From a virus: a stretch of 64,000 nt of DNA. The stretch is from positions 1-64,000 of IMG/VR virus record IMGVR_UViG_3300046804_001743; one strand, given 5' to 3'. This document shows positions 3,967-30,973 of this stretch, one piece after another. The notes beneath the pieces were generated by a model. It was not told the origin of the DNA, did not search any database, and worked only from the letters and a program-made list of their open reading frames with translations. The translations under genes were made by a program, and so were the position numbers. The number at the start of each line of letters is the position of its first letter. The stretch's first letter is position 1.

Positions 3967-4586
3967 GTCTTATAAGCAAGGACCATAAAACATTTTGCCA
4001 ATGGTATTACAACGACACAGAATATCATCGAGGCCAGAATCAAGTTGTCGATCCTGCATTAATGGAAGAAAAATGGTTAAGGGAAGTAAACTACATTACA
4101 CAAATGCGTAATACTTTTCCTGACCTTGTCCCAAATATTACTAATATCGATTTAGAAAGGCGCAGACTGTACTTTGAAATCGACGGACCAGACTTTTGGC
4201 AATTAGCAGGCCCTACTATACAAGACTACGATAGTGTACTTCCAGATTGGCGTGAGCAAATGCTAAACATTTTTAAAGCGCACAAGGCATTAGGCATTTA
4301 CAAATACAGCTTGCATCCTAGTAGTTACTTTGTTGTTAACGGTAAACTCAAAAGTATTAACTATTTCTTTTGTTATAGAGATCAAGATCCTAATATTAGT
4401 ATTCGTAGTGTGTTAAGCCATATAAGTGAAGACAGGCAAGCAGACCTATTTCCTAAAATGGCTGCAATGGGCATTAACGTAGATGCTCCTACTAGTTTTA
4501 AAGATATACAGATGTTAGCATTTGAAAGTTTCAAAACAAACTTCCCCGCTGACTTTATGGAAGAAGCTAAAAGTATCTATGAATAA
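3891..4586 (+). CDS. hypothetical protein
   Basis: ORF ends in an ATGAATAA overlap with the next radical SAM gene. Confidence 0.45.
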   Translation: MITGYEYYYNDVPGKGLCRNNLIYTSLISKDHKTFCQWYYNDTEYHRGQNQVVDPALMEEKWLREVNYITQMRNTFPDLVPNITNIDLERRRLYFEIDGPDFWQLAGPTIQDYDSVLPDWREQMLNIFKAHKALGIYKYSLHPSSYFVVNGKLKSINYFFCYRDQDPNISIRSVLSHISEDRQADLFPKMAAMGINVDAPTSFKDIQMLAFESFKTNFPADFMEEAKSIYE

Positions 4587-5739
4587 AACATATTGTGCTT
4601 TGCCATTTAGAGAAACAATGCTTGTGCCAGGAGATGTGCTATTGTTATGCTGTAGACACGACACTAATGTAATCATAGAAGAAAATTTTGAAAAAAGTTT
4701 TAAGTCTGGCAAAATACAAGAAATACGAGAATTGATGCTAGAAGGTAAGCCCGTCGCTGGTTGCGAACAATGTTATATAGAAGAAGAGCAAGGTGTAGAA
4801 TCGATGCGTCAACAAAGCATAAAGAAATACGGTGTTGTTGAGGATATCGAACTACAGGGAATACATATACAATTTGATAACGTTTGTAATTTAAAATGTA
4901 GGATGTGTACTTCTACTTCAAGTCATTTACTTCACAACGAAGAAACAGAATTATATGGTAAAGCTATTAGTTGGCAAAAGTTTGTAGTAGCAGATAGGTA
5001 TAAAGAAATTGATACTTCTAAATTAACAGTTATAAGACTGCATGGTGGCGAACCATTTATGAGCAAAAGGGCTGAGGACTTTTTTAAAAGTATTACAAAG
5101 TCAGGCCGTATTAATCAAGTCAGCATTGTTATACCTACTAACGGAATGATTAGACCATCTAATGATTTCTTAGAAGCATTAGAAAATTGCAATGTTTTAT
5201 CTATTGCGGTTAGTATTGATGCATATGGTGGATTTAACGATTATTTTAGAAGTAAGTCAGAATTTAATACAGTGATAGAGAATTTAGATTTCTTTTGCTC
5301 ACTAATTGATTCTAGAAAACCTGGGACTACTAACATTAGTGTTGTTACAACTGTTAATGTATATAACGTAAATAAGTTAACCGAATTAGATTCGTTTTTA
5401 ACTTCGCGTTATAACAATTTAAAATTAGTAAAGTCAATGCTACACGGCCCTGACTACCTACGAATTTCTTGTTTACCAAAAGAATACAAAGATAAAATTC
5501 GCCATACTTTAGAATTATATCCCGATGTTCTAAAAATGTTAGACAAAGAAGATACAAACTACTTTGAAGAATTTATTTTTTATCATAATACTTTAGACAA
5601 ATTAAGACATGAGTCTCTAGAAAACTTTAATATAGAGCTTTCTCAGTATATTAAGTCTTACAAAGTTGCTAAAGAAATAACAACAGAAAGCATGGCTAAC
5701 TTCTACAATTTTGTGGACCCAGGAATTTTTAATGACTAA
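4579..5739 (+). CDS. radical SAM enzyme with Cys-rich N-terminal domain
   Basis: N-terminal YCALPF...LLCC...GCEQCY domain, then CNLKCRMC (CxxxCxxC) and LHGGEPF. Start at the ATG overlapping the upstream stop. Confidence 0.8.
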   Translation: MNKTYCALPFRETMLVPGDVLLLCCRHDTNVIIEENFEKSFKSGKIQEIRELMLEGKPVAGCEQCYIEEEQGVESMRQQSIKKYGVVEDIELQGIHIQFDNVCNLKCRMCTSTSSHLLHNEETELYGKAISWQKFVVADRYKEIDTSKLTVIRLHGGEPFMSKRAEDFFKSITKSGRINQVSIVIPTNGMIRPSNDFLEALENCNVLSIAVSIDAYGGFNDYFRSKSEFNTVIENLDFFCSLIDSRKPGTTNISVVTTVNVYNVNKLTELDSFLTSRYNNLKLVKSMLHGPDYLRISCLPKEYKDKIRHTLELYPDVLKMLDKEDTNYFEEFIFYHNTLDKLRHESLENFNIELSQYIKSYKVAKEITTESMANFYNFVDPGIFND

Positions 5740-6706
5740 ACCCTACTTAAAACTTCTTGATATCTATTACGGAGCAAAGTGTAATCTTTCTTGTAATCAA
5801 TGTGATACAAGAAGCGATGTTATTAGAACAGCAGATAACGATCCTAATATTGAAACAATATTAGAAGGAATAACTTTAGCAAAAGAAAAATTCGAAATTG
5901 ATTTGTATAGTGTACTAGGAGGAGAGCCGTTACTTTATCTAGATAAGATCGATATCATACTCGAACACATTCGAAAAATAGATCCTAATGCAAAGATACA
6001 ATTTTCTACCAATGGTACATTACTTTCTAAAAAGATAGACGACGTTGTTAGCATTATGCAAAAACATAATTGTGGACTATTTGTCTGTAACCATTTTGCG
6101 GCATTTGATGTAGATATGACTGCAAGAATAACTGATAGTGTAGACTATCTAGTTAATCGCCTAGGGTTATCTAGAGGAGATGCTAATAAATTCTTTAAAG
6201 AATTTATTCAATTAGATAATCCAAGAAAAGATCCGTTTTTTCAAAAGTGGATTAAACAACACGAAGATTACTTTTTAGGTGAGCAACCAGACGACCATTA
6301 CTATCATAACGGTAATATCTTTGTGCATTTTAGACCGCAATATGATTTTAAAAAGAATCATTACATGAAAGATGGAAAACCTAAACCTCATATGACAGGT
6401 CTTCCTCATATATCTTTTAAAGAAGGATGCAGTAGTGTTTTATGTAACTTTTTAATAGATAAAAAAATTTATAAGTGTGCGGCATTGGGAACTTTAAAAA
6501 AGTTCTTAGAGTTTCATGGAAGTTTAGATGATCCAGATTGGAAAAAATACTTAGACTACAAGTGTTTAGATTTAGAAACTTGCTCCGAAGGTGATGCATA
6601 TAAATTCAGTATTGGTAAATTTTGTGCAGTTGCAGAATGCGACATGTGCGGAACTAGCAGTTTTAAAAGAACAGAAGAGTTTGTAATAAATGTACACAGT
6701 CGTTGA
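5732..6706 (+). CDS. radical SAM enzyme with C-terminal Cys-rich (SPASM/twitch-like) region
   Basis: CNLSCNQCDT motif and VLGGEPLLY. C-terminal cysteines C..C...C..C.C. Confidence 0.75.
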   Translation: MTKPYLKLLDIYYGAKCNLSCNQCDTRSDVIRTADNDPNIETILEGITLAKEKFEIDLYSVLGGEPLLYLDKIDIILEHIRKIDPNAKIQFSTNGTLLSKKIDDVVSIMQKHNCGLFVCNHFAAFDVDMTARITDSVDYLVNRLGLSRGDANKFFKEFIQLDNPRKDPFFQKWIKQHEDYFLGEQPDDHYYHNGNIFVHFRPQYDFKKNHYMKDGKPKPHMTGLPHISFKEGCSSVLCNFLIDKKIYKCAALGTLKKFLEFHGSLDDPDWKKYLDYKCLDLETCSEGDAYKFSIGKFCAVAECDMCGTSSFKRTEEFVINVHSR

Positions 6707-7244
6707 ATGGCGGGAAGATTTAGACCTTACTGCATTTTATAAAGAGGCAGAAGAAAAAGGATTTGCTAATAATAGCAGTCAGCGTGTGATGATTGATTGT
6801 TTTAGAAATGAGCAAAAATGGAACGCTTGGATTCTGTACGAAGACAGTAATGCAATTGGTAGTGTTGCCGCTCACTCGTTTGACGACGTCATGGGGCCCG
6901 GTAGTTATAGGATACTTACAAGATGTTGTGTTCTACGAGGTGCAAGATCAAGTGGTGGAATGATGACTGCTAATGTTGCTATAGGACAACATCAAAATTT
7001 AACTGATCAATTTTTATTACCGGCCTGTATTAACTGGGCAGGCAACAACGTGTATGCAACATCCAACGAAAGCAAAGTTGCTAGCCAACGGTTTGTGCAT
7101 AGAACTTATTTTCCCACTTTAGAAAAAATAGGTGTTGTAGAAAAAGTCAAAGATGTTTTTTACAGAGGAACTGAGCAAACAGTATGGAAAATACATGTTA
7201 ATAATTTCTATGAGAATTTAAATCGTTATCCTAGATGGATTTAA
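6690..7244 (+). CDS. hypothetical protein (184 aa)
   Basis: ORF between radical SAM genes. No motif recognised. Confidence 0.4.
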   Translation: MYTVVEWREDLDLTAFYKEAEEKGFANNSSQRVMIDCFRNEQKWNAWILYEDSNAIGSVAAHSFDDVMGPGSYRILTRCCVLRGARSSGGMMTANVAIGQHQNLTDQFLLPACINWAGNNVYATSNESKVASQRFVHRTYFPTLEKIGVVEKVKDVFYRGTEQTVWKIHVNNFYENLNRYPRWI

Positions 7245-8166
7245 TAGGAATATTTTTAAATTTCTTTTTAAAGTTCGGATCAAGTGTAAACTTTATGTTG
7301 TGTAATTTAACGTCCTGTTGTTTGTCAAAGGCGCATAGTTTACATACTTCTATCGACTGTTTTAAATCGTACTCGATAAATTTCTTAACTGCATCATAAC
7401 CGTCAAGCGGGTCACACGGTTTATATTTTTCTAAAATCTCCTGTGCTTCAGGCACATACTTTACTTGATGTTTGGCTTCAGGGTAATTTGTAGTAGCCGG
7501 ACAATGGTACATTAATCCGTGTTGTATATTGTATTCTGTATGCCATCCACACGCTTCAAAACTCTTTTCTTGATCGCCTCCCATATGGAAGTGAACAGTT
7601 CCGTCTTCTACACGTTGATGATATGGTTGGGCAAATCTTGTAAATTCTTCTAATCTTAAAATTAGTTTGTTGTTTAACAAATACTTTATTGCCTTGTTTT
7701 GTTGTAGTGGAATATATTCCTCTTCAATTACCTGCAAAGAATCCACCCAGGGTTCGAGAACTGCAAGTGCATCTTCTTTCATTTCTTGGAACTTTTCTTC
7801 AGAATCATAGTGGCAAGCAACTCTAAGATGTGCATTACCATCGCTAATTATTAACCTAGCTAGATCAATACGCTTTCGTAATCTTGTTCCGTTGGTTGGA
7901 ATCTCAATGTGTGCGTTAGGCCATAGGCGCCTAATATTTAAAAACCATTCATCTAAGTTAGGATGTAAAAACATCTCGCCGCCTGCAAACGCAACATTGT
8001 CAGTATCTAAATACTCTGCCCATCTTTCAAAACGATCCTCGCTATCAGTCCAGTTAAAGTTTCCAGTAAAGTCATAACAAGCCAAGCCACCGCAATGGCT
8101 GCAAGTTAAGTTGCAAAGGTTGTTTACTACAACCGAAAGATATGTATCAAGTTTAATTTTTTGCAT
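7231..8166 (-). CDS. radical SAM enzyme (SPASM/twitch-like C-terminus)
   Basis: CNLTCSHC and FAGGEMF. The C-terminal motif IPIKSI is shared with the 16159 paralog (IPIKSV). Confidence 0.75.
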   Translation of the reverse strand: MQKIKLDTYLSVVVNNLCNLTCSHCGGLACYDFTGNFNWTDSEDRFERWAEYLDTDNVAFAGGEMFLHPNLDEWFLNIRRLWPNAHIEIPTNGTRLRKRIDLARLIISDGNAHLRVACHYDSEEKFQEMKEDALAVLEPWVDSLQVIEEEYIPLQQNKAIKYLLNNKLILRLEEFTRFAQPYHQRVEDGTVHFHMGGDQEKSFEACGWHTEYNIQHGLMYHCPATTNYPEAKHQVKYVPEAQEILEKYKPCDPLDGYDAVKKFIEYDLKQSIEVCKLCAFDKQQDVKLHNIKFTLDPNFKKKFKNIPIKSI

Positions 8167-8761
8167 TTGTAATTTGTGAAACTTCTAATGTTGGATTAAT
8201 TCTTTTAAGTTCAGATACCAAGTGCGGAGTTAACTTCCATCTAAATTCAACTTGTCTTATTGTAGGTTTCTGTGCCCAGAATATAATAGTGTCAACAATG
8301 TCATCTTTAGGTGTTGTGTAATCGCTGATAAAAGAAAACGGATTATCAGAATCTACTACGGTTCCTTCAATAAACCCTAAATCTAAATGTAGTAACGGAA
8401 TTCCGTTAGGATCTAAGCTAATACGTCTACATGCATCTGCTAGTTCTTGCTTATCATGCACATACTGAGTAGGTATAACATCTGGATAGAAGCGACTTAC
8501 ACTACCCATAACAACCATCATATCTACTTTGTCTTTAAGTGCTTCTAGTAATTTTAATTGCTGACGATCTCTATAGGCGTTATTAATGAATAGTTCACAA
8601 CCGCTAGCTTCATCTATTATACGATCAAAGTCTTTGTCGATGTCATAACCGTTGCTACGGCTCATACCTATAATTTCTCTACAACTACCTTCTTTAAATT
8701 TTTCGTAGATAGCTTTACCAATGCCGCCAGTATGACCAGTGATAATAATCTTTTTATCCAT
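8153..8761 (-). CDS. short-chain dehydrogenase/reductase (SDR)
   Basis: MDKKIIITGHTGGIGK Rossmann motif and an NNAY motif. Confidence 0.6.
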   Translation of the reverse strand: MDKKIIITGHTGGIGKAIYEKFKEGSCREIIGMSRSNGYDIDKDFDRIIDEASGCELFINNAYRDRQQLKLLEALKDKVDMMVVMGSVSRFYPDVIPTQYVHDKQELADACRRISLDPNGIPLLHLDLGFIEGTVVDSDNPFSFISDYTTPKDDIVDTIIFWAQKPTIRQVEFRWKLTPHLVSELKRINPTLEVSQITNAKN

Positions 8762-9212
8762 TCGGTTCTCCGTGTACAAATGATACACAAGTTACTTTAG
8801 GGTTAGCTAACCAAAAATCAATAGTTTTGCCTATTAGCTCTGGGTTATTATAACTGTCCCCTGTTAAATCTAAAAGTAAGAAATCTGTTTTGTTTTGTGT
8901 ATTAGCAAGTTCTAACACACGTTGTTTCAATTCTTTTTTATGCTGACTATATACAGGCATGTTATGATCTGTGTAATCAGCGGCAACACTACCCATAACA
9001 ACCATCCTACTGATTTTAGAATACAAATTGTTAACTAGATCTATCTGAATACCGTTGCCATATGCATTGTTAATATACAGATCGCAACCTAGTGCAGGTG
9101 CTATCTTATCGTCTCCACGATTCAATTCGATAACAGTATGCCCTTTACTACTAAAGTAATTTGTTAGTTCTTTACCTAAACCCCGTGTTGTGCCCGTAAT
9201 TACTATTTTCAT
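8754..9212 (-). CDS. SDR-like protein (short paralog)
   Basis: MKIVITGTTRGLGK and YINNAYGNG. Paralog of the previous gene. Confidence 0.5.
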   Translation of the reverse strand: MKIVITGTTRGLGKELTNYFSSKGHTVIELNRGDDKIAPALGCDLYINNAYGNGIQIDLVNNLYSKISRMVVMGSVAADYTDHNMPVYSQHKKELKQRVLELANTQNKTDFLLLDLTGDSYNNPELIGKTIDFWLANPKVTCVSFVHGEPNG

Positions 9213-9214
9213 AC

Positions 9215-9760
9215 TTACCACAGATTTAAAATATATTTTGGTTCTAATCCGCAGTTACTGCCAGCATGCCAGTATCTCCTATCGTCCCATTTAAATGTGG
9301 CGCCTTGTGGTTGATTATAAAAGCAACGACCTTCAGCAATAAAAATATGACCAAACTTTGGTTTTCCTATATGACAATGGTATCTAACCTTTGGAGGCAA
9401 CTTTGACAGTTCTTCTTCGTGGTCATTAACATCCCAATGCCACGGAGCAAAATGCCCAACATCTACTTTACTGATCCATGCAGTATGGTAGTTTTCAATT
9501 TTAAATATTTCACAAAACTTTGCTACTGATCGCTCATCAAATTGTTTTCCTGGAATGTACATACTCCAACCTACTGTACCACCTTCAGAGATATTTTTGT
9601 ATTTTGCACGTTCCCATAAGTTAGCTACTTCGTCTAAGCCAGGAATGTTGTCACCTTTTTTGTGACTAGGTCCAATGTACTCCGGCGATGTATTAGCACA
9701 CTGGAGAATTATTTCATCCCAGCTGATCTGATCAGCACAATTTCCAATGTATTCAATCAT
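9215..9760 (-). CDS. cupin-type oxygenase-like protein
   Basis: HWDVNDHEE ... WHAGSNCG (HxD...HxAxNxG signature shared by five paralogs). Confidence 0.45.
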   Translation of the reverse strand: MIEYIGNCADQISWDEIILQCANTSPEYIGPSHKKGDNIPGLDEVANLWERAKYKNISEGGTVGWSMYIPGKQFDERSVAKFCEIFKIENYHTAWISKVDVGHFAPWHWDVNDHEEELSKLPPKVRYHCHIGKPKFGHIFIAEGRCFYNQPQGATFKWDDRRYWHAGSNCGLEPKYILNLW

Positions 9761-10371
9761 CTCGGCTTTCCTAAAAAATGAAACAGATAATAAGGCTCAT
9801 ACCCACAGTTAGTGCCAGCATGCCAGGTTTTATAATCATTCCATTCGTAAATCTCATGCTGTGCAATATTATAAAATGCATCTTGTCCTTCTAACAACAG
9901 TACATGACCATCTTGCGGTTTGTCCATAAATGCTACCCAACGTTTTAATTCGCCTTCTGCAAGCCACTCTTTTTCTCTATCTTCTACATCCCAATGATAA
10001 GGAACACATCGTCCAGGCCAGAGCTCGCTAACAAATACACGCCTTGGATCTGCGTTTACTAAGTCTGCAAACTTGTTCTGCACTTCTATATCAAAATGCA
10101 CACCAGGATAGTAATCGTACCATTCGATTAAAGATAAATCATAGCCAGCATCATTCCATAATTTAATAACTTCTCGATATGATCCAAGTAAAGCAGGATC
10201 TTCCTGCCAGCTTGATTCTGACCTGTCTACTACTGTTTTCACAGAATTAAAATCTCCGTCAGAACTGTTTCTGCAGATTTTTACAATTTCATCCCAATCA
10301 ATAATACCCTTAGTTGTTCCAACGTATTTCGCCATAAATGTATTCCAAAGTTTCTCCTGCCCACTTAACAT
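9757..10371 (-). CDS. cupin-type oxygenase-like protein (tandem paralog)
   Basis: HWDVEDREKE ... WHAGTNCGYEP. About 35-40% identical to the 9215 protein. Confidence 0.45.
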   Translation of the reverse strand: MLSGQEKLWNTFMAKYVGTTKGIIDWDEIVKICRNSSDGDFNSVKTVVDRSESSWQEDPALLGSYREVIKLWNDAGYDLSLIEWYDYYPGVHFDIEVQNKFADLVNADPRRVFVSELWPGRCVPYHWDVEDREKEWLAEGELKRWVAFMDKPQDGHVLLLEGQDAFYNIAQHEIYEWNDYKTWHAGTNCGYEPYYLFHFLGKPR

Positions 10372-10984
10372 GATTACGCATAGACTGCTGGTACATTACT
10401 TCTAAATTATAATGTGTTTCCGTACGCACAGTTTCGTTTAATCTAAACCTAGCAGTTTCGTGTACTATTGCATCCATGTATTTTGTTTCTATTAACGGAT
10501 TAGACGATGAGATGCACCCATACCAATCAATAGTTTTCATAGTTCCGCTCTTATCTAAAAAATGACAATGCGGATACATTGTAAGTTTATAAATTCCTTC
10601 GTGAACTAAATCTAACATAATGTTCTTGAGGGGCTCACGCCATTCGACATGTTCTCCTCTATGTAGCATTTCATTAAAGGTGTAACCGTTCCATTCAAAA
10701 AATATTTTTTTATTTTTGTAATCGATATCTAAGATGTTTGGTGCATACTGCTTATGTTTAAATTTTAGCAGATGATTAACTTCGTTTTGAAAGAACCACT
10801 CACACACTTCTTCATTATACAAATCTCTAGTTTCATACAATCTTTGATATTTGTTTTGCCAGTCATAGTTTGCACAAAACACAGTCCTGTCTGGACTAAT
10901 CAAAGGTTCGTAAGTTTGTTGTGCAAGACATAGCTCGCCATCGTCACCGTACTTAAAGAAAGGTTTCCAATTATCAATGTTCAC
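10310..10984 (-). CDS. hypothetical protein (possible kinase-like fold)
   Basis: ORF only. The HCHFLDKSG segment gives a weak kinase-like hint. Confidence 0.35.
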   Translation of the reverse strand: MNIDNWKPFFKYGDDGELCLAQQTYEPLISPDRTVFCANYDWQNKYQRLYETRDLYNEEVCEWFFQNEVNHLLKFKHKQYAPNILDIDYKNKKIFFEWNGYTFNEMLHRGEHVEWREPLKNIMLDLVHEGIYKLTMYPHCHFLDKSGTMKTIDWYGCISSSNPLIETKYMDAIVHETARFRLNETVRTETHYNLEVMYQQSMRNHVKWAGETLEYIYGEIRWNN

Positions 10985-11645: not shown

Positions 11646-11684
11646 GAAATATTTATATGCTACTATAACTCACTTAAATATATC

Positions 11685-12961: not shown

Positions 12962-14210
12962 AACATTTTGTATGCATCCTTTTACAGGATTAGCCACTAG
13001 AGAAGATGGAGCAATTAAAATATGCTGCCGCAGTCAACCTATTGGCTGGATACAGGAACAAAGCCTAGAAGAAGCATGGAACGGCGACAACATGAGACTA
13101 GTTCGCCAGCAGGTACTTTCAAACGAAAGACCAGAGGTATGCAAGCCATGTTTTGATCTTGAAGACCAAGGTGTAGAAAGTTTACGCCAACGTCATATTA
13201 AAGGCGAAATACCAGAAGCAAGGATAAACCTGTATCCACACGCTTTAGAAAAATTACATCCAGAAATGACCATGCCGTTTGAATTTCCTACTATGGAAAT
13301 TAAACTCAACAACTTGTGTAATTTAAAGTGCCGTATGTGTAACCCATTAGACAGCACTAACTGGAAAGATTGGGATTCTGTCGTTCCTTTCTATAAAAAA
13401 GAAAATAACTATCTTGTTCCAACTATAGAAAAATTAGTTAAGACACCTGGGCAATATATTGGCCCGTTTGACGATACAGATAACTGGTGGGCTAGTTTTG
13501 AAAAACTATTGCCGCACTTTAGACGTGTAGAGTTTGCTGGCGGTGAACCGCTAATGGATCCTCAACACTATAAAATTTTAGATATGTTAAAACCTTATGG
13601 TAGCAACATTGAAATTAAGTATGCCACAAACGGCACTACATTAGGAATTAGCAAAGGAAGAACTATTCATGACTACTGGCCTCATTTTAGAAGCGTTGCC
13701 GTTAACGTCAGCATTGACGGCATTCACAATGTTTACAATTACATTCGTGGCAACGGTGACTTTAATCAAGTTGAAGAAAATATTAAAGAAATAAAAAAGA
13801 TACCAAACGTAAGTCGTGTAGTCGGTGCGTTTACAGCACAAGCAGGCAACATACTACAAGCGGCGGCCTGCATTGATTACTTTCTTAACAAGTTAGGCAT
13901 TGTGTTCTATAGTCATAGGGTAAGTTATCCCAATGTACTTTCAGCACAGGTGTTACCTAATGAATTGAAACAAGTAGCAATTAACAGATTGCGAGAAATT
14001 AGTATGCGTGTTTCCACATTTGATATTGTTAAGCAACATCCTATATTAGAAAAAATTACACAACAACAGATACAGGACAATATTAATTACCTACAAGCAA
14101 AAGATGAAAGCCATCGTTGGCAAGAATTTTTAGAATTTAATCGTGCGTTAGATGCTACACGCAACCAAAGCCTTTTAGATACTGTTCCAGAGTTTAAAGC
14201 GTATGTATAA
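12951..14210 (+). CDS. radical SAM enzyme with Cys-rich N-terminal domain
   Basis: FCMHPF...ICCRSQP...CKPCFDLEDQGVESLRQ N-terminal domain, then CNLKCRMC and FAGGEPLMD. Confidence 0.8.
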   Translation: MNSKTFCMHPFTGLATREDGAIKICCRSQPIGWIQEQSLEEAWNGDNMRLVRQQVLSNERPEVCKPCFDLEDQGVESLRQRHIKGEIPEARINLYPHALEKLHPEMTMPFEFPTMEIKLNNLCNLKCRMCNPLDSTNWKDWDSVVPFYKKENNYLVPTIEKLVKTPGQYIGPFDDTDNWWASFEKLLPHFRRVEFAGGEPLMDPQHYKILDMLKPYGSNIEIKYATNGTTLGISKGRTIHDYWPHFRSVAVNVSIDGIHNVYNYIRGNGDFNQVEENIKEIKKIPNVSRVVGAFTAQAGNILQAAACIDYFLNKLGIVFYSHRVSYPNVLSAQVLPNELKQVAINRLREISMRVSTFDIVKQHPILEKITQQQIQDNINYLQAKDESHRWQEFLEFNRALDATRNQSLLDTVPEFKAYV

Positions 14211-15087
14211 AGTTACTAGTCGCTGGCCTCACCAAACAAGCATTAAGGTAGAATGGAACCTTGGCAAACGCTGTAACTACGATTGTAGTTATTGTCCTGC
14301 GGCAATACACGACAACACTAGCCCGCATACTGATATTGAGATACTCAAAAAAACTATTGATAAGTTACAAACATTGGGTAAACCTATACGTCTAAGTTTT
14401 ACAGGCGGGGAGCCTTGTGTACATCCTAAGTTCCAAGAACTAATAACTTATGCAAGGTATAAAAATATTTCTTGGATTAGTGTAACTACAAATGGTACTC
14501 GCCCGTATGAGTTCTATCGTATAATACCAGTTAACCAATGGGTGTTTAGTATACACTTAGAATACGACTGGATGCGTGTAATAAACACATTAACAAAATT
14601 AGCAGACAAAACAAATTTTAAATTAATTGGACAAATTATGGCACATCATGATCATATGGGTTCGGCTAAAATTGTTAAGGGTATGTTAGATCAGTATCAA
14701 ATACCTAATACAGTTAGGCGCATACGTTGGACAGAAGGAGACCATGATTTGTTCGATGATATGCGTTATCATCCAGATGACTTAAACTGGATTAAGGAAC
14801 AGGATGCTACTATATCAGGTAACTGTATAATTGATGATAAAGATGTTATACATAGTAATGACGTTATTAAGCTACACCTAAACAAGTATAAAGACTGGTC
14901 CTGCAATGCAGGCATAGAAAGTTTAATGATTAACTGGGACGGCGAGGTTCATCGTGCTACTTGTCGTGTTGGCGGAAGTTTAGGTAACATATACGACGGC
15001 ACATTTGCCCAACCAGAAGATCCTGTTATATGTACTAGAAATTTTTGTACCTGTGCCGCTGACATACCTATAACAAAATTAAAATGA
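14203..15087 (+). CDS. radical SAM / SPASM-twitch domain enzyme
   Basis: CNYDCSYC and FTGGEPCVHP. C-terminal W.CNAG...CRVGG...C....C.C is a SPASM-like cysteine pattern. Confidence 0.8.
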   Translation: MYKVTSRWPHQTSIKVEWNLGKRCNYDCSYCPAAIHDNTSPHTDIEILKKTIDKLQTLGKPIRLSFTGGEPCVHPKFQELITYARYKNISWISVTTNGTRPYEFYRIIPVNQWVFSIHLEYDWMRVINTLTKLADKTNFKLIGQIMAHHDHMGSAKIVKGMLDQYQIPNTVRRIRWTEGDHDLFDDMRYHPDDLNWIKEQDATISGNCIIDDKDVIHSNDVIKLHLNKYKDWSCNAGIESLMINWDGEVHRATCRVGGSLGNIYDGTFAQPEDPVICTRNFCTCAADIPITKLK

Positions 15088-16181
15088 TTAATACTACTGC
15101 TATAAGACTTAAAACACCCGAGTCCTTAATGGTCACTTGGGATATCATTAGAAGGTGTAATCTAGATTGTACATACTGCGAATCTACACGGCATGACAAT
15201 CGAAGTCCGCTACCTTCTTTAGAGGAATTAATAACTACATTCGACTTTGTAAAAAAATATACTGATTTGTACAATAGCCAGCGTGTTGACAAAATTGGAA
15301 CTAACATCGATTTCACGGGTGGCGAACCGACTATTAATCCTGCGTTCTGGTCTTTGATTGATTACATTAAACAGCATAAAGATTTTAGATTAAGTCTAAC
15401 AACAAACGGTACATGGGGACCTTCATTTACAGAAAAGATATTAGACAACTTTGGCCATGCAACAATTAGTTGGCATGCAGAAGATGCATTAAAAGAACGC
15501 ACAGTTAAAAATATTCTAGATTTGCATGAGGCTAATATTGGGTTACAGGCTAATGTAATGTTGCATTGTGACTACTTTGATGAAGCAACTGCTCTATGTG
15601 AAATGTTTCGAGACAAAGGAATTAAAGTAAATCCAGTACCTATCGGCGATGGTAACTTAGTTCGTAAGGGGTGGTTTATTGATGCCGATGGTACTAACAG
15701 AAGAACCAGTCATGAGTATACAGAAAAACAACAGGATTGGTTTTACAATTGGATGGGGCAACCTAGAAAGGCCACGGCATCAGCAGAAGGAACTAATGTA
15801 GGGAGAGCTTGCTGTGGTGGTAGATGCACACAGGGGCTAGTTAACGGAGAGTGGCAAGAAGTTAAATTAGTTAACAATTGGTTTAAAGATTGGTACTGTA
15901 CTGTTAATTGGTATTTCTTGCACATTGAACAAAACACAGGAAAAGTTTTCCATCATCAAACTTGTCAGGCAACACATACTGGTAGGGGGCCAATTGGAAA
16001 TCTTAACAACACAGAGTCTATTCTCAGCAACGTCAGAGAGATGTTGTCAGGCTCAGTTAAACCTATTGTATGTCCTAATCAGAGATGTGGTTGCGGAATG
16101 TGTGTACCAAAAGCCAAAGACATTAGCGTGTTTAAAGAGCTTTGGAGTTCTACTACAACTATACCGATTTTATTGGAATAA
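15084..16181 (+). CDS. radical SAM / SPASM domain enzyme
   Basis: CNLDCTYC and FTGGEPTINP. Many C-terminal cysteines (CCGGRC...CPNQRCGCGMC). Confidence 0.8.
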   Translation: MINTTAIRLKTPESLMVTWDIIRRCNLDCTYCESTRHDNRSPLPSLEELITTFDFVKKYTDLYNSQRVDKIGTNIDFTGGEPTINPAFWSLIDYIKQHKDFRLSLTTNGTWGPSFTEKILDNFGHATISWHAEDALKERTVKNILDLHEANIGLQANVMLHCDYFDEATALCEMFRDKGIKVNPVPIGDGNLVRKGWFIDADGTNRRTSHEYTEKQQDWFYNWMGQPRKATASAEGTNVGRACCGGRCTQGLVNGEWQEVKLVNNWFKDWYCTVNWYFLHIEQNTGKVFHHQTCQATHTGRGPIGNLNNTESILSNVREMLSGSVKPIVCPNQRCGCGMCVPKAKDISVFKELWSSTTTIPILLE

Positions 16182-17133
16182 ATTTAGAAATTTGTATTTC
16201 GCCGCCGCACATACAAACATCTTTGTTACACACGATTGATGTAATCTTAGGTTTAAATTTATTTACAAACTCTGGATCGTAAATGTTGTAGTGAAATGCT
16301 TCGTTGTAGATTTTTTGTTTACAAGTACCAGCAATAACACCGTCCTGAAACACCTCTATGTAATCTACACCAAGGTTACAATTCCATCCTTTGAACCTAT
16401 TTAGGTTATTTAAGAATAGCCAGTTATCTTCGACTAAAGTTTTCTTCCCATCGATAACAGCCCACAGCCTTCTGCGTTTACTTACTTTTAAACTGAACCA
16501 CCAAAATAAATTAGGCCAGCGTTTTAATTGTACAGAAAGATATTTCATCTGTTCTTCGTCATGCAAAGACTGGCCGTTGATCTGCACAGCCTTAGCAACT
16601 ATAGGCCAACGCTTTTTACTTTTTCGTAACTGTTCAATTAGACCTTTACATTTGTCAAATGCAAACGGATCCATTAGCACATTAGCTACTATATTGTTCT
16701 TGTTAGTATACAAAAAGTCAGCAACTTCTATAATGTGATCTATCTTTGCGTATTCGTGGTGTACAGATATTTCAACTACATCAAAGCAGTTAGCATTTTC
16801 TTGCCACCAGTTTAATTTCCTTGTTGCATTTGTAGATATTTTAATTATGACATCATAGTTGGCTTTTAGGTGATTACAAAATTTTGGCAGGTCTTTCCAT
16901 AATGTAGTTTCGCCACCAATGATAAAAAATTCAAATTTATTCTTTCCCTGTTGCTTGTATGTGTTAAGCAAGTGATCAAAGTTCTTGATAAGTAAATCAA
17001 CGTCCGGCCATGGAACATTACCTTCATTACTTCCCGGAAAACAATAGTGGCACTTATAATTACAAAGGTTGCCGGGCATGTATTCGATCCTAAGTAGGTC
17101 AGGTTCGTCGTTATTAATAATCTGTGTAATCAT
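16159..17133 (-). CDS. radical SAM / SPASM-twitch domain enzyme
   Basis: CNYKCHYC and IIGGETTLW. C-terminal WNCNLG...C...CNKDVCMCGG. Its 3' end overlaps the convergent 15084 gene by 23 nt. Confidence 0.8.
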   Translation of the reverse strand: MITQIINNDEPDLLRIEYMPGNLCNYKCHYCFPGSNEGNVPWPDVDLLIKNFDHLLNTYKQQGKNKFEFFIIGGETTLWKDLPKFCNHLKANYDVIIKISTNATRKLNWWQENANCFDVVEISVHHEYAKIDHIIEVADFLYTNKNNIVANVLMDPFAFDKCKGLIEQLRKSKKRWPIVAKAVQINGQSLHDEEQMKYLSVQLKRWPNLFWWFSLKVSKRRRLWAVIDGKKTLVEDNWLFLNNLNRFKGWNCNLGVDYIEVFQDGVIAGTCKQKIYNEAFHYNIYDPEFVNKFKPKITSIVCNKDVCMCGGEIQISKFIPIKSV

Positions 17134-18512
17134 AATAGATGTGCTAGTTCCGGAAATATTTCTTTGAAAGAAGTACCACGCAACTTATCTAATCTCTCTA
17201 TATACTCTTTAAATGCTAGCAATTGACTGCTATGATCTTCAGCATCCATAAAGTCTAATACTGCTTGCCATCGCTTCCAACCATATGGATTCTTTTTCCA
17301 GAAGTCTTCATCTTGCCTATAATTTTCGTATAACCAATTAGCTAGCTCGGCAAAACTTCTACGGACTTCTGCTTTATCCTCTGCAGGTAAACATCTAATG
17401 CTTAGGAATGTTGGAATATACAACAAGTGCATATTGACAATTCCGCCGCCTGCTTGGATACCGCCCGTTACATTTTCTAAGTTAATCTTCTTAAAATTCT
17501 GTGTAATTTTCCACTTGGCAAAATCTGCTAAATGCTTGATGTTTAAAATTTGTATAGCAGTAGCAATTGATACTTGTATATTGTCAGGAGTGTTATCTAA
17601 CTTATGTAAATTCTTTTCAATGGTATTCCAATCACTAGGGTAGCGAATGTAATAGTTGCGGTCACCTACTGCGTCTATGCTAAAACCAACTTTAACTTTT
17701 TTAAACTGTTTCCAGAGATCAATAATTTCGTCGTCAACAAGCAATCCGTTTGTGTTATATCTTACAAGTATTTTGTCTGCATATCCTTGCCTGATAATTT
17801 CCTCTAAGAACCACTTATGTTCTCTAATCATTAATGGTTCGCCACCGGCAAAGTATACTTGTTTTAAGTTTGGAATCTGTGCATACATTTCTTTCCAGAA
17901 GTCTGGATTCTCATGCCAGAAATTATTAAAGTCTTTTCGATCCCATTGCATCTGTTCTTTAAGTTCTTTGGCTTGGAATAAAGGGTAAATCTTTTTATGA
18001 TCTGCTACCCATTGACTACTATCATGTGGACTGCACATAACACACTTTAAATTGCAAGTGTGCCCTAAACGCAAATCTAAGTAAACAAGTTTTTCTGGTA
18101 CTGTGCCATCTTCTTGTGTTTGGGTGATGAGCTCAGGAATATCAATTCCTTCTTCCATCCAGGACCCTGTTTCCCAGATGCGCTTGCTAGCAACACCTTT
18201 TGATTCTTCAGCAATACACTTACTACAACTAGCAGGAATTTTTCCTTCTAGCATAGTCAAACGTACATCACGCATATATTCATTATTCCATGCGCTCATA
18301 GGAGTTTCTTTGCCGAAGTTAGCAGGAACTCCTTTTTCATTTTTAACTAAACCCACTGTATGGTTTTCACCTGCTCCACTGGCATTGGCACTACAGCATA
18401 GTCGCATGTCTCCATTTGGCCGTGTGGCAAAGTGTATCCATGGCAATATGCAGAAAGTTTTGCTTCCTGATGCGGCTTCAATTTTATCTTGCCAGTGCTT
18501 AATTGTGTTCAT
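17130..18512 (-). CDS. radical SAM enzyme with Cys-rich N-terminal domain
   Basis: TFCILPW...LCCSANAS...CSKCIAEESKGVASKR, then CNLKCVMC and FAGGEPLMI. Confidence 0.8.
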   Translation of the reverse strand: MNTIKHWQDKIEAASGSKTFCILPWIHFATRPNGDMRLCCSANASGAGENHTVGLVKNEKGVPANFGKETPMSAWNNEYMRDVRLTMLEGKIPASCSKCIAEESKGVASKRIWETGSWMEEGIDIPELITQTQEDGTVPEKLVYLDLRLGHTCNLKCVMCSPHDSSQWVADHKKIYPLFQAKELKEQMQWDRKDFNNFWHENPDFWKEMYAQIPNLKQVYFAGGEPLMIREHKWFLEEIIRQGYADKILVRYNTNGLLVDDEIIDLWKQFKKVKVGFSIDAVGDRNYYIRYPSDWNTIEKNLHKLDNTPDNIQVSIATAIQILNIKHLADFAKWKITQNFKKINLENVTGGIQAGGGIVNMHLLYIPTFLSIRCLPAEDKAEVRRSFAELANWLYENYRQDEDFWKKNPYGWKRWQAVLDFMDAEDHSSQLLAFKEYIERLDKLRGTSFKEIFPELAHLL

Positions 18513-19110
18513 TTTGTGTACCAATTATCATAAATCTTTTATATAAAGGCAGTTCTAATTCGCCTGCCCATAGGACATGAATGCCGCATTGTGTTTTAAA
18601 TTCTTCTAAGTCTTTAGCGATACGAACATGTTCTGGTATGTTGTAATTATTACTTTGTAATACTAGCAGGCTGTTGTGAGGATGCCCACTTAACCATTCT
18701 TCGTACTGTTCCTGTGTTATGTGTTCGCAACTGGTATTGATAATAATATCAGCATCACTACGCATAGTACACATATCGGCGGTTACTGCACGAAACCTTC
18801 CTGATTCAAATTCCATTTGATTCATACGGTTAGCAATCGCTTCACAGTCTGGATCAATGTCAATACTTCTAATGTTGTTAACAAAAAGCTCACTTTGAAA
18901 TATAAGGCTTGCTAGTGTCCCCACCCAGCCACCGTGAATATCAATGCTAGGCCAAGTTTTAAAATTACCTCGTTGTTTAACTAATTCTTTAATGAGCCAT
19001 TCCTTACTGCTCATTTGTCCTCGCCAGAAAGCATCAAGGGTCCGCATAGGGTCCTTGCTCTCACGGATGGCACACATCCAATGATGTAGGTGTTCTGTAT
19101 CAACTAACAA
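18499..19110 (-). CDS. putative SAM-dependent methyltransferase
   Basis: IDIHGGWVGTLA (glycine-rich motif I-like) followed by IRSIDIDPD (acidic motif II-like). Confidence 0.4.
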   Translation of the reverse strand: MLVDTEHLHHWMCAIRESKDPMRTLDAFWRGQMSSKEWLIKELVKQRGNFKTWPSIDIHGGWVGTLASLIFQSELFVNNIRSIDIDPDCEAIANRMNQMEFESGRFRAVTADMCTMRSDADIIINTSCEHITQEQYEEWLSGHPHNSLLVLQSNNYNIPEHVRIAKDLEEFKTQCGIHVLWAGELELPLYKRFMIIGTQNEHN

Positions 19111-20077
19111 ATTGTGCTCCTAGTTTATCAAACTTGCCGCATTGTTTACTGCATTCTATTAAAGGCTTTACTGCCCATGTGTCTTCTATCTTTTTAAAGA
19201 ATCCTAGATTAAAGATTTCTTCTAGTGTATTTTGTGTTAGGCTAGGAAATATCCCTATGGCATCCATATACTCAACACGATTATCTTGGTTAGGCAGTTG
19301 CCAAGAAAAGTCTAACCAACAGCAAGGACTTACTATGCCGTTAGCACTAATATAAATCTGTTTGTACTTTTGTGCCTTACATTGTATCTCAGCAGACTCA
19401 ATGTTTATTACCTTAGGCGTGTAACTTTTACTAATTTCTGTAGGATATAAAATGTGTGTGGTCTTGCCCGACTCGTCTAATACATTAAATTTTCCATCTT
19501 TAAAACGGCTAGTGTGTTTTACTTGGAAATGTTTAAATCCTAATAGTTGGCTCATTTCCCTGCAGATGTCTACCTCATTTTCGTTATGTTCAAACACTAG
19601 CATATCCCAAGTTGCTTCACCACCTGCTTTAATAAACAATTTTGCGTTGTCTAAAATCTTAACCCAGTCAGTGCCCACACGATACAATGCGTGTGTGTTA
19701 ATTAATCCATCTATACCAAACCTAACTTGTACACCCACGGCTGCGAGCCCCTTCCAGAACTGCCAGCTTCTGGCACTTCCGTTAGTATTCATGCTTAAAC
19801 GAATTGTAGGATTTGTTTCTCTCAAGTACTGAAATATTTTTAGACAATCTTGTGCTATAATAGGATCACCTAAATTGCCGCACATAAACAAACTGTCTAA
19901 CTGTTTTATAAAACTAACAGGGAACCATTCTTTAAATTGCTCTAGGGTTATTTCATTTAACGACATAAGAGGATTAATGGGACCACCATTGATGCGGCGT
20001 GGACACATTGGACAACGTGCTTGGCACTTGCTAGTCAATTCTAAGTGTACGTCTCTAATATCTTCTAGTTTATACAT
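19100..20077 (-). CDS. radical SAM enzyme (Cys-rich C-terminus)
   Basis: CQARCPMC near the N-terminus and GNLGDPI. C-terminal CCW...C...C cysteines. Confidence 0.75.
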   Translation of the reverse strand: MYKLEDIRDVHLELTSKCQARCPMCPRRINGGPINPLMSLNEITLEQFKEWFPVSFIKQLDSLFMCGNLGDPIIAQDCLKIFQYLRETNPTIRLSMNTNGSARSWQFWKGLAAVGVQVRFGIDGLINTHALYRVGTDWVKILDNAKLFIKAGGEATWDMLVFEHNENEVDICREMSQLLGFKHFQVKHTSRFKDGKFNVLDESGKTTHILYPTEISKSYTPKVINIESAEIQCKAQKYKQIYISANGIVSPCCWLDFSWQLPNQDNRVEYMDAIGIFPSLTQNTLEEIFNLGFFKKIEDTWAVKPLIECSKQCGKFDKLGAQFVS

Positions 20078-21024
20078 TTTGGTATTTTACTGTCCGCCGA
20101 ACTTACGCAGGTTGGTGTAATACAGCGTTGAGGTTGTTTAAATAATTTAAAGTTATCTAATGTGCCTAATAGTTCGTCATGGCAGCTATAACTTCTTTTA
20201 ACCTCATTACCTCTTATTATAACACTCTGATAGCCTGCATTGCAAGCCCATCCTTGGAATTTGTTAAATCCAAAGGCATTAAATCTTTCTGCTTGATCTA
20301 ACAAGTGCTCTGTGCCATTTGCTTCATATAGAGCTATTTGGTAAACATCTTCACCATTGGCTCTTTGTGGAAAACCTGTACGCATTTTGTGTATCATATC
20401 CTCAGTATAACCGTCAACTACTGCACTAGCAGTTTCGTTACTTTGTGGCTTTAGTGTTACATTGATTCCTCTATCGTGTAACCTCTGCATACGGTCATAC
20501 AATTCATAAAATTTTTCAGGAACCATAACTTGGTTTACTGTAACAAATACACCCTTATCTATTAAGTAAATAATCTTATCACCAAACTCTGTTTCGTCAG
20601 CAAACTCGTGATGGAAACTGGCAGTAAGGCTTCTACGCCTGCTTAACGATGTACCAGCTAGCCACCTATCCCACCATTGGATCCCAGGACTAAGGTTAGT
20701 AGTCATATGAATACTGTCATAGAAAACTTTGGACATTAGCTCAATTGAGTGTTTGTATGCGGTAGGTTCACCTCCGCTGAAACTCCAGTGAAATTGGACA
20801 AATCCATTTTGGGCGGCTTGAAATCGTATTTCGTCTATTGTTCTTTTATAAACTTCGAGCTCTTGATGATCTGGTGTTTGGCTATTAGCATAAGGCCAAC
20901 AATAGCTACATTTATAGTTACAAAATCTACCCAAAATCCAACTCACTGAGAAAATTTGGTCGTTGAGCATAGTTCGTTGTCCAAAACGAACGATCTTTTG
21001 GAATGGTATGGTTGCAAAGCTCAT
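20065..21024 (-). CDS. radical SAM / SPASM-twitch domain enzyme
   Basis: CNYKCSYC and FSGGEPTAY. C-terminal WACNAGY...C...C..C. Probable ATG at 21024 (the ORF track starts at a GTG, 21030). Confidence 0.8.
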   Translation of the reverse strand: MSFATIPFQKIVRFGQRTMLNDQIFSVSWILGRFCNYKCSYCWPYANSQTPDHQELEVYKRTIDEIRFQAAQNGFVQFHWSFSGGEPTAYKHSIELMSKVFYDSIHMTTNLSPGIQWWDRWLAGTSLSRRRSLTASFHHEFADETEFGDKIIYLIDKGVFVTVNQVMVPEKFYELYDRMQRLHDRGINVTLKPQSNETASAVVDGYTEDMIHKMRTGFPQRANGEDVYQIALYEANGTEHLLDQAERFNAFGFNKFQGWACNAGYQSVIIRGNEVKRSYSCHDELLGTLDNFKLFKQPQRCITPTCVSSADSKIPKCIN

Positions 21025-21052
21025 TGACACTATTTACAAACGGATATATAAT
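21024..21052 (+). promoter_or_regulatory. sigma70-consensus promoter (TTGACA-17nt-TATAAT)
   Basis: TTGACA at 21024-21029 and TATAAT at 21047-21052 with a 17-nt spacer. The predicted TSS (about 21059) coincides with the start of the tRNA-like element. Confidence 0.6.
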
Positions 21053-28645: not shown

Positions 28646-28653
28646 GGAGTTTT

Positions 28654-28740: not shown

Positions 28741-28741
28741 A

Positions 28742-29536: not shown

Positions 29537-29537
29537 A

Positions 29538-30970: not shown

Positions 30971-30973
30971 AAA

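Follow-up and report, generated by a model that had tools for sequence, protein, structure and literature searches.

Twelve radical S-adenosylmethionine (rSAM) genes of four subfamilies are encoded in a 64,000-nucleotide stretch of viral DNA (positions 1 to 64,000 of IMG/VR record IMGVR_UViG_3300046804_001743; hereafter 'the window'), which derives, by its gene content, from an uncultivated, large phage of myovirus-like character. Genes for sugar-nucleotide enzymes and glycosyltransferases are in physical linkage with the rSAM genes, and the balance of evidence tips modestly towards one distributed system that occupies 1.3-21 kb and 36-48 kb and would build and tailor a glycan of an unusual kind. 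Such a product is favored because sugar-nucleotide enzymes and glycosyltransferases interleave with the rSAM core both in phage relatives and in bacterial loci, so that the assignment is one of gene linkage, not of chemistry. That the rSAM substrates are sugars, as well as the individual reactions and the acceptor, we infer from sequence. Genes are named here by the lower coordinate of their reading frame, and loci used for comparison carry L numbers.

Twelve radical SAM enzymes in one phage

Among the 78 non-overlapping open reading frames (ORFs) of at least 70 residues that make up the ORF set of the window, 12 contain a CxxxCxxC motif: ten within 4522-21030, and two more at 36342-37733 and 45980-47491. 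A first-pass annotation, made from the letters alone, had placed ten such ORFs in the block and two outside, and all of them were recovered where it had put them. The positions 4579, 5732 and 21024 that it had given as gene starts are correct as positions and represent internal ATGs of the ORFs 4522-5739, 5711-6706 and 20065-21030, the ATG at 4579 being the likely true start of the first of these. A motif scan locates GGE downstream of CxxxCxxC in all 12 ORFs. The narrower GGE(P/M), previously ascribed to all ten ORFs of the block, applies to eight of them (GGEP or GGEM), with GGET in 16159 and GGEA in 19100, the latter about 130 residues downstream of CxxxCxxC; 36342 and 45980 both have GGEP. 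When the residues of the 78 ORFs were shuffled 1000 times, 0.28 ORFs with CxxxCxxC were expected (maximum 3; 12 observed) and 0.001 with GGE located 20-90 residues past that motif (11 observed). The number of rSAM genes, called striking for a phage at first pass, has one brief precedent in the literature (PMC5332604).

All ten ORFs of the block exceed the gathering cutoff of the Pfam family Radical_SAM (PF04055; 29.5 bits) with 34-48 bits. Taken over the whole window, 11 of the 12 do so (32.6-47.8 bits, with 36342 at 32.6 bits), and the twelfth, 45980, stays below the cutoff with 23 bits yet reaches 308.3 bits on NCBIfam NF033640 (cutoff 170). The profile search that had been proposed as a check hence confirms radical SAM domains throughout, and on their motifs and profile scores the twelve ORFs are genuine radical SAM enzymes. 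None of them reaches the cutoff of any NCBIfam equivalog that has a defined function (MoaA, QueE, viperin, anSME, NirJ, or maturases of ribosomally synthesized and post-translationally modified peptides, RiPPs), and identities as MoaA, viperin, anSME, NirJ or AhbD were ruled out, with equivalog scores all far under the cutoffs. The twelve genes are:

4522-5739, + strand: rSAM subfamily A; PF04055 37.5 bits; NF033640 213.6 bits; CNLKCRMC at residue 122, GGEP at 175
5711-6706, + strand: rSAM subfamily C; PF04055 44.3 bits; E 1e-8 to 7231; Cys-rich C-terminus
7231-8166, - strand: rSAM subfamily C; PF04055 34.3 bits; CNLTCSHC and GGEM
12951-14210, + strand: rSAM subfamily A; NF033640 322.3 bits; Pfam SPASM at residues 7-67; conserved core
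14203-15087, + strand: rSAM subfamily B; PF04055 47.8 bits; C-terminal 4-Cys twitch-like motif; conserved core
15084-16181, + strand: rSAM subfamily B; PF04055 45 bits; E 2e-19 to 14203
16159-17133, - strand: rSAM subfamily B; PF04055 41.7 bits; E 2e-14 to 14203
17130-18524, - strand: rSAM subfamily A; NF033640 415.0 bits, best of the five; four-gene core
19100-20077, - strand: rSAM subfamily D; PF04055 35.7 bits; PF13186 22.7 bits at residues 233-313; four-gene core
20065-21030, - strand: rSAM subfamily B; PF04055 38.4 bits; four-gene core
36342-37733, + strand: rSAM subfamily A; NF033640 309.5 bits; heads the second block
45980-47491, + strand: rSAM subfamily A; NF033640 308.3 bits

Four subfamilies and their auxiliary cysteines

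The subfamilies were defined by all-against-all comparison of the twelve proteins together with NCBIfam. Subfamily A (4522, 12951, 17130, 36342 and 45980) possesses an N-terminal twitch domain and scores 214-415 bits on NF033640, while the remaining seven rSAM proteins score at most 57 bits and are non-members. Four cysteines located N-terminal of the core (C25, C44, C100 and C103 in the numbering of 17130) are invariant in all five paralogues and kept in 47-48 of 48 orthologues; CN(L/F)KCxxC and GGEP then follow, and the Pfam SPASM profile matches this N-terminal segment in 12951 and in 17130 (residues 25-103). Subfamily B (14203, 15084, 16159 and 20065) comprises small proteins that open directly with the rSAM core and that share, in a four-sequence alignment, an invariant C-terminal C-x19-C-x19-C-x4-C. 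Subfamily C is the pair 5711 and 7231. Subfamilies B and C have 4 to 7 conserved C-terminal cysteines and no Pfam SPASM match, and subfamily D, consisting of 19100 alone, has a C-terminal SPASM domain that lies just above the cutoff of 21.5 bits. Seven Cys-rich C-termini of SPASM/twitch type had been claimed at first pass. The pattern is indeed present in the seven proteins of subfamilies B, C and D, but 19100 alone passes the Pfam SPASM cutoff, and the N-terminal position of the auxiliary domain in the five proteins of subfamily A had been missed.

Orthologues keep the cysteines of CxxxCxxC almost without exception (37 or more of 38 sequences). In 14203 the cysteines are invariant in 38 of 38 orthologues and the C-terminal ones of 7231 in eight of eight sequences, and orthologues of 5711 keep C240, C245, C256, C291, C305, C310 and C313. 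Across 2-47 phage orthologues with 39-92% identity, rSAM and auxiliary cysteines are invariant or nearly so while all other cysteines vary. Selection thus maintains cluster binding in these genes, and the alignments show the predicted cluster ligands to be under purifying selection.

Sugar-nucleotide and glycosyltransferase genes at 36-48 kb

The second block, which starts with 36342 and also includes 45980, encodes enzymes of nucleotide-sugar activation and interconversion (39714-40742 and 47476-48243) together with glycosyltransferases of the kind expected for a glycan locus (38457 and 41827), as listed below:

37717 and 41060 (starts), + strand: 2-oxoglutarate (2OG) oxygenases, PF13640
38457 and 41827 (starts), + strand: paralogous GT-B glycosyltransferases
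39714-40742, + strand: nucleoside diphosphate (NDP)-sugar 4,6-dehydratase/epimerase, a short-chain dehydrogenase/reductase (SDR) of GDP-mannose-4,6-dehydratase type; PF16363 1e-50; PF01370 1e-48
40739 (start), + strand: small cupin
43183-44202 and 44199-45101, + strand: SGNH-like proteins (GCS variant)
45088-45987, + strand: DUF6492 protein
47476-48243, + strand: fusion of a cytidylyl/adenylyltransferase (RfaE-II-like) with a mannose-6-phosphate-isomerase-type cupin; PF01467 5e-14; PF01050 4e-24

Matches of 47476-48243 to TIGR02199 and TIGR01479 stay under their cutoffs. For the GT-B protein, fold matches include the T4 DNA beta-glucosyltransferase and alpha-glucosyltransferase, and fold relatives occur in giant viruses and in one cyanophage.

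Conservation and linkage in related phages

Related contigs were examined as stretches of about 20 kb. Megablast of the rSAM block against 50,697 phage genomes gave no match, and tblastn of the 17130 protein against phage genomes returned only four distant records; the closest isolates, as found for single proteins, are the jumbo or T4-like myoviruses PA5oct, RsoM2USA and Cr30. IMG/VR, in turn, contains 68 related loci in which the 17130 protein is 61-92% identical, on contigs of up to 357 kb, and other assemblies contain related contigs of 273, 375 and 384 kb. Stretches of 21 kb around the 17130 orthologue hold up to 11 CxxxCxxC ORFs, and the trait is therefore conserved in an abundant clade of uncultivated large phages. 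In environmental assemblies, rSAM homologues number in the thousands.

The suggested comparison of synteny in related phages reveals a recurrent core (20065, 19100, 18499, 17130, 16159/15084, 14203, 12951, 11622 and 10974), each member being present in 37-65 of the 68 loci; homologues of 12951 were counted in 64 related loci, and those of 18499, a non-rSAM protein encoded between 17130 and 19100, in 60. According to the orthologue maps, genes outside the core come and go, and gene order is shuffled even between close relatives. Genes of the second block recur in or beside this core: (i) 41827-like genes sit within it in L044 and L051, (ii) the nucleotidyltransferase-cupin and an SGNH-like gene adjoin 18499 and 19100 in L047, (iii) an epimerase gene adjoins 19100 in L067, and (iv) a 44199-like gene lies in or beside the core in L015. 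This gene arrangement identifies the 16.5-kb rSAM block, along with the rest of 1.3-21 kb, and the 36-48 kb block as parts of one system. On the 384-kb contig L148, genes for a UDP-glucose/GDP-mannose dehydrogenase (UDPG_MGDP_dh) and an NDP-sugar epimerase/dehydratase are located immediately upstream of, and co-directional with, the orthologues of 20065, 19100, 18499 and 17130, and a cytidylyltransferase of the CMP-sugar-synthetase type (CTP_transf_3) is encoded near the core. Phage contig L155 carries a module with a 36342-like rSAM gene (60% identical), a 2OG oxygenase, a 41827-like GT-B glycosyltransferase and an SGNH-like protein.

A bacterial counterpart in Bdellovibrionota

A profile of the N-twitch rSAM proteins, scanned against 185,579 species genomes, found its matches mainly in Bdellovibrionota (Bdellovibrionales, Pseudobdellovibrionaceae, Bacteriovoracaceae and Oligoflexia), in which the rSAM loci are chromosomal, with DnaG and ATP synthase genes on their flanks. 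Orthologues of 17130 are 63-85% identical across Bdellovibrionota, including the cultured Bdellovibrio sp. HCB2-146 and Halobacteriovoraceae, and the phage protein is 46-47% identical to those of the latter two. To proteins of the same two loci (L157 and L158), phage 20065 is 48-49% and phage 19100 35-40% identical; 18499 is 34-37% identical to proteins of L157, L158 and L110. Hence, the four-gene core 20065, 18499, 19100 and 17130 is orthologous to Bdellovibrionota loci at 34-49% identity.

In HCB2-146 (L157; JBLEQP010000001.1, 1.88-1.90 Mb), the core and a 36342-like rSAM gene are interleaved with genes for five family 2 glycosyltransferases (GT2), a Glyco_transf_7C protein and a GNAT protein, and the locus abuts a gene for a Peptidase_S74 fibre-like protein of 1959 residues. 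On the Halobacteriovoraceae contig (L158), the core occurs together with four GT2 genes, three more N-twitch rSAM genes and one that is QueC-like. Of the 148 genes that neighbour N-twitch rSAM genes at 78 loci of bacteria and archaea, more belong to GT2 (8) than to any other family; DegT, epimerase, methyltransferase and QueC come next. The similarity to Bdellovibrionota may hint at the host of the phage or at an old exchange of genes between phage and predator; as to the host, the sequence comparison is suggestive only. Tandem N-twitch rSAM arrays were also seen in this phylum, comprising eight of nine ORFs in L100 and ten rSAM-motif ORFs within 17 kb in L075, and further rSAM-dense loci were encountered in Planctomycetales (L138), Bacteroidales (L133) and Legionellales (L130).

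Accessory genes and the remainder of the window

The non-rSAM genes of the 1.3-21 kb block are:

1343-1960, strand n/a: SGNH/GDSL-like; weak PF13472 match; keeps GDS
1957-2493, strand n/a: cupin-like; weak PF05118 match, Asp/Asn-hydroxylase-like
2448-3047, strand n/a: 2OG-Fe(II) oxygenase; PF13640 2.9e-12
3049-3966, strand n/a: protein without family assignment
3891-4586, strand n/a: kinase-fold-like; the family profile (3891/10310) matches protein kinases with E 1e-4
6690-7244, + strand: conserved protein inside the rSAM block, without Pfam or PHROG match; in 27 related loci
8153 and 8754 (starts, within 8153-12961): two short SDR-like proteins; weak adh_short, Epimerase and KR matches
9215 and 9757 (starts, within 8153-12961): HxD...H cupin-like paralogues; H126, D128 and H184 invariant in the family
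10310 (start, within 8153-12961): kinase-fold-like; weak protein-kinase profile match
10974 (start, within 8153-12961): protein without family assignment
11622-12362, + strand: QueC-like PP-loop ATPase; SGGxDS and C...CxxCxxC invariant in the family; phrog_1550 QueC-like 2e-5
12317-12961, + strand: SGNH-like, GCS variant
18499-19110, - strand: non-rSAM partner, class I methyltransferase-like by a GxGxG-like motif only; four-gene core

Firm accessory assignments are those of the PF13640 2OG oxygenases 2448, 37717 and 41060 and of the PP-loop protein 11622, the others being weaker (motif-based or sub-threshold). Correspondingly, the neighbours named at first pass hold for the 2OG oxygenase 2448-3047 and the PP-loop gene, whereas SDR, SGNH and methyltransferase assignments are only sub-threshold or motif-based. 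The QueC likeness of 11622 is itself weak: the window protein has no Pfam match, and a faint precomputed PF06508 match exists for its orthologue in L148. A methyltransferase fold for 18499 is thus an assignment by motif for a protein that lacks a match in Pfam, NCBIfam, PHROG and PDB. Profile searches against PDB sequences gave nothing for 18499, the cupin-like and PP-loop families or DUF6492, and a weak kinase-fold match for the 3891/10310 family; nine of ten accessory proteins have no match in PHROGs. The genes located in 8153-12961 were each found in 14-42 related loci. Of the four SGNH-like proteins of the window, whose family matches are all sub-threshold, three (12317-12961, 43183-44202 and 44199-45101, + strand) have GCS in place of GDS in block I, and 1343-1960 retains GDS.

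Beyond the two blocks, the window encodes an ATP-dependent DNA ligase, a metallophosphoesterase, a UvdE endonuclease and, about 1.3 kb downstream of the 36-48 kb block, a virion structural protein. QueD/6-pyruvoyl-tetrahydropterin synthase (PTPS) is encoded at 51489-52040 (+; PF01242 1e-26), 39 kb from the QueC-like 11622. An Fe/Mn superoxide dismutase (54005-54577, +; PF02777 and PF00081; DWWEHAW motif) and an A-type Fe-S cluster carrier (IscA/ErpA-like; 54909-55232, +; PF01521; GGGCSGF...CGCGSSF) are likely to be support functions for twelve Fe-S enzymes. A giant, Thr/Ser/Gly-rich ORF starts with the ATG at 55239 (+), spans at least 2920 residues and weakly resembles tail-fibre/structural proteins of T4-like cyanophages, with which it shares 23-26% identity along a stretch of some 400 residues. 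The ORF list looks empty at 55-64 kb because this one ORF runs off the end of the window, and stop-codon reassignment, considered for that ORF-poor region, was ruled out. An IF-1 homologue (22265-22483, +; 72 residues; PF01176 1.5e-19) borders the rSAM cluster in the window and also in L149-L153. Genes related to host physiology are grouped within 21-35 kb (at about 27900-32450, +). Of these, ClpP is assigned to a particular ORF (30974-31594, +; 6e-61); the others encode an SPFH/Band-7 protein and its NfeD-like partner, a membrane protein of the Bax1-inhibitor family, and a MazG/PRA-PH-like protein.

A putative route to an unusual glycan

A glycan pathway built from these components might be envisaged as follows. 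Sugars would be activated and interconverted by the nucleotidyltransferase-cupin and the NDP-sugar 4,6-dehydratase/epimerase, joined in relatives by a UDP-sugar dehydrogenase, and transferred by at least two GT-B glycosyltransferases and the DUF6492 protein. Each of the twelve rSAM enzymes is predicted to bind a [4Fe-4S] cluster through CxxxCxxC and to cleave SAM, yielding a 5'-deoxyadenosyl radical that would abstract hydrogen from sugar carbons; an auxiliary cluster held by the cysteines of the N-terminal twitch, C-terminal twitch-like or SPASM region could accept or donate a second electron, as in BtrN-type chemistry. Dehydrogenation, epimerisation, deoxygenation, and the formation of C-C or C-methyl bonds at unactivated positions are conceivable outcomes. 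For further decoration, cupin and 2OG oxygenases would hydroxylate, the short SDRs reduce and the kinase-fold proteins phosphorylate, while the QueC-like PP-loop amidotransferase, the methyltransferase-like 18499 and the SGNH-like acyl-esterases would add further groups by amidation, methylation and acylation. The Fe-S carrier and the superoxide dismutase probably keep the oxygen-labile rSAM enzymes working in an aerobic host; O2-dependent oxygenases share operons with the O2-labile rSAM enzymes, and together with these two genes this suggests both such a host and a demand for cluster supply and protection. As acceptors, the surface of the infected cell and virion proteins of the fibre or capsid are both plausible. 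It is tempting, though unlikely to be correct, to go further and to regard radical editing of sugars (epimerisation, C-C branching or cross-linking), a so far undescribed glycan chemistry, as common to jumbo phages and Bdellovibrionota, both predators of bacteria, possibly as a decoration of the fibres used to attack prey, with the four-gene core as its conserved catalytic unit.

Several observations weigh against a glycan product. None of the four rSAM subfamilies has a known substrate, and the nearest solved structures (MoaA, BlsE, viperin, CteB and BtrN) align to the generic core only; the AlphaFold2 model of the N-twitch rSAM protein, obtained with a five-sequence alignment, is unusable (predicted local distance difference test score, pLDDT, 47.5). 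No protein of the 4.5-21 kb block has a significant sugar-enzyme match, so that the link of this block to sugars is by way of the relatives and of the 36-48 kb block. Wzx/Wzy, ABC transporter, polyprenyl-phosphate transferase, NeuB and DegT genes were not found among the 78 window ORFs, and the phage could use host functions for export and polymerisation or glycosylate proteins directly. Proteins are frequent substrates of prolyl 4-hydroxylase (P4H)-type 2OG oxygenases and of enzymes with a kinase fold. Finally, a flavin-dependent halogenase (PF04820; L152, 18022-19248) and fusions of a cold-shock domain with a P4H-type 2OG oxygenase (L149, 7215-8042; L152, 7243-8073), located within the rSAM clusters of relatives and absent from the window, would match sugars less well than substrates of aromatic, peptide or nucleic-acid nature.

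Alternative products of the system

The first-pass annotation had left open whether the product is a sugar or glycan, a modified virion protein or a modified nucleotide; the evidence now favors the glycan, with the other two kept as rivals. Maturation of a phage protein, e.g., of the Thr/Ser-rich giant tail-fibre-like protein, or of a ribosomal peptide, is in our estimate rather unlikely. The rSAM enzymes, P4H-like oxygenases and kinase-fold proteins would then introduce crosslinks, epimerisations or hydroxylations, the hydroxylated residues being subsequently glycosylated. SPASM/twitch domains are indeed typical of peptide maturases, the weak secondary NCBIfam matches are mostly to RiPP maturases, the PF13640 oxygenases are of P4H type and are accompanied by a weak Asp/Asn beta-hydroxylase match, the 3891/10310 family has its protein-kinase-like profile match, and the halogenase of L152 lies within the cluster. 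Moreover, the virion structural protein gene follows the second block at a distance of about 1.3 kb and the fibre-like ORF of at least 2920 residues at about 7 kb, and the Bdellovibrio locus adjoins its own fibre-like protein gene, yet such adjacency is inconsistent among the bacterial loci. Pfam reveals no RiPP recognition element (RRE)/PqqD domain on any of the 12 rSAM proteins, and subfamilies B and C, which open with the rSAM core, have no room for a peptide-binding domain. Since the genes of the cluster abut or overlap, there is also no conserved small Cys- or Gly-rich ORF in it, and the sole recurrent small ORF in relatives is helical, Cys-free and absent from the window. A RiPP precursor system was ruled out, neither a candidate peptide nor an RRE domain having been found. 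Glycosylation of hydroxylated fibre-protein residues would be a hybrid compatible with both a glycan product and protein maturation.

Quite improbable, in our view, is a locus that makes a modified or glycosylated phage DNA base, or modifies RNA, as a defense against host nucleases (of the 7-deazaguanine or glucosyl-hydroxymethylcytosine type). The QueC-like PP-loop protein with its QueC-type Zn-Cys motif and the QueD/PTPS gene would suit such a product, as would the T4 DNA beta- and alpha-glucosyltransferases among the GT-B fold matches, the cold-shock-domain-oxygenase fusion in the cluster of relatives, and the ThyX and histone-like genes near the cluster in L148. Against this stand the best scores on QueE models, 18-30 bits compared with cutoffs of 206-260, and the window ORFs, among which FolE, TGT/DpdA, dNMP hydroxymethylase and TET/JBP domains were not found; for the window, part of a genome that in relatives reaches about 380 kb, a complete queuosine/7-deazaguanine operon was ruled out on the QueE scores and on FolE and TGT not being found there. 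PP-loop amidotransferases occur in sugar pathways too, and the orthologous core is a chromosomal Bdellovibrionota locus flanked by GT2 genes, which suggests an envelope or protein glycan instead. A diffusible small molecule (aminoglycoside-, nucleoside- or cofactor-like), with which the infected host would be reprogrammed or protected, would account for the many tailoring enzymes, the halogenase in relatives and the heavy gene shuffling, which resemble a natural-product cluster, and MoaA, BlsE and BtrN are among the closest solved rSAM structures. It is nevertheless equally improbable: non-ribosomal peptide synthetase, polyketide synthase, cyclase and inositol synthase genes were not found in the window, and several glycosyltransferases per locus, as well as the bacterial GT2 arrays, suggest a polymer or glycoconjugate. 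A lead towards a phosphonate pathway (PMC8942020) was dropped, the paper being irrelevant.

Significance of a probable glycan-tailoring system

Radical SAM enzymes are responsible for some of the most difficult chemistry in living cells, and carbohydrates are the known substrates of only a few of them. Here, four subfamilies without characterised function are present in twelve copies within 64 kb, with strongly conserved cluster ligands. If their substrates are sugars, as the preferred glycan reading would have it, a set of new glycan-tailoring reactions would be added, and phages would be seen to invest heavily in oxygen-sensitive chemistry, to the point of encoding an Fe-S carrier and a superoxide dismutase themselves. 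The question is amenable to experiment because cultivable Bdellovibrio has the orthologous core, and two phages that can be grown, RsoM2USA and Vibrio K566, carry scaled-down forms of the system. The link to Bdellovibrionota, moreover, raises the questions of which hosts this phage group infects and of gene flow between phages and predatory bacteria.

Comparison with known systems

The rSAM superfamily, the NF033640 sequence family, virus-encoded glycosylation and the count of 12 rSAM genes in one marine phage are already known. What appears undescribed in the literature searched is (i) the composition of four subfamilies, (ii) the link to sugar-nucleotide and glycosyltransferase genes, (iii) the conserved four-gene core and its orthology with glycosyltransferase-rich Bdellovibrionota loci, and (iv) the recognition that a large viral family of 'hypothetical' proteins consists of GT-B glycosyltransferases. 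Literature searches on the rSAM family, and on rSAM genes with glycosyltransferases in Bdellovibrio, found nothing relevant. The view taken at first pass that the pathway is uncharacterised is upheld: no NCBIfam equivalog reaches its cutoff, QueE was not found, and no paper on the family was found.

Chloroviruses and mimiviruses with their glycan genes, and cyanophages with their lipopolysaccharide-like clusters, possess NDP-sugar enzymes and glycosyltransferases of their own; to our knowledge, none of these glycan systems has an rSAM array. The family to which five of the twelve phage enzymes belong, NF033640 ('twitch domain-containing radical SAM protein', N_Twi_rSAM), is defined by sequence alone, and no paper on its function was found in the literature search; here, five copies occur in one phage beside three other rSAM subfamilies. 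BtrN, the 2-deoxy-scyllo-inosamine dehydrogenase of butirosin biosynthesis, is a small carbohydrate rSAM enzyme and the archetype of those with a twitch domain; its single auxiliary [4Fe-4S] cluster sits in that domain, which (residues 188-261) aligns to positions 22-97 of the phage N-twitch profile (E 1.6e-4, 24 bits). However, the twitch domain is C-terminal in BtrN and N-terminal in the phage enzymes, the overall similarity is marginal, and the twitch segment alone aligns, with no 2-deoxystreptamine gene context, which argues against a BtrN-like dehydrogenase. For subfamilies A and D, the best sequence match among solved structures is MoaA (GTP 3',8-cyclase; E 3e-8 and 2e-4, respectively), but the phage proteins score 20-43 bits compared with equivalog cutoffs of 231-325, and no MoaC or molybdopterin context exists.

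The Bdellovibrionota loci share with the phage the four-gene core and a 36342-like rSAM gene, as well as, in L158, the QueC-like gene. They are nonetheless GT2-rich and chromosomal, whereas the phage has GT-B and DUF6492 proteins, more rSAM subfamilies, and many cupins and oxygenases. By gene counts, the window resembles TARA_ERS488813_N000010, a T4-like marine viral genome reported to have 12 radical SAM genes and an A-type Fe-S carrier (Nishimura et al. 2017, PMC5332604); the window, too, has 12 rSAM genes and such a carrier, along with ClpP. That paper only counted the rSAM genes while discussing Fe-S metabolism, and subfamilies, context and function were not analysed in it. Among isolates, Ralstonia phage RsoM2USA (L156, 215.9-218.7 kb) encodes a 45980-like rSAM protein (36% identical) together with a partner similar to 18499 (34% identical) and an epimerase, and Vibrio phage K566 (L159, 161.5-168.3 kb) carries four N-twitch rSAM genes within 7 kb, near a PagP-like gene. 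Compared with the twelve rSAM genes of the window, RsoM2USA and the Vibrio phages K566/K567 thus have one to four, annotated as hypothetical or 'radical SAM domain-containing' and 22-36% identical to those described here.

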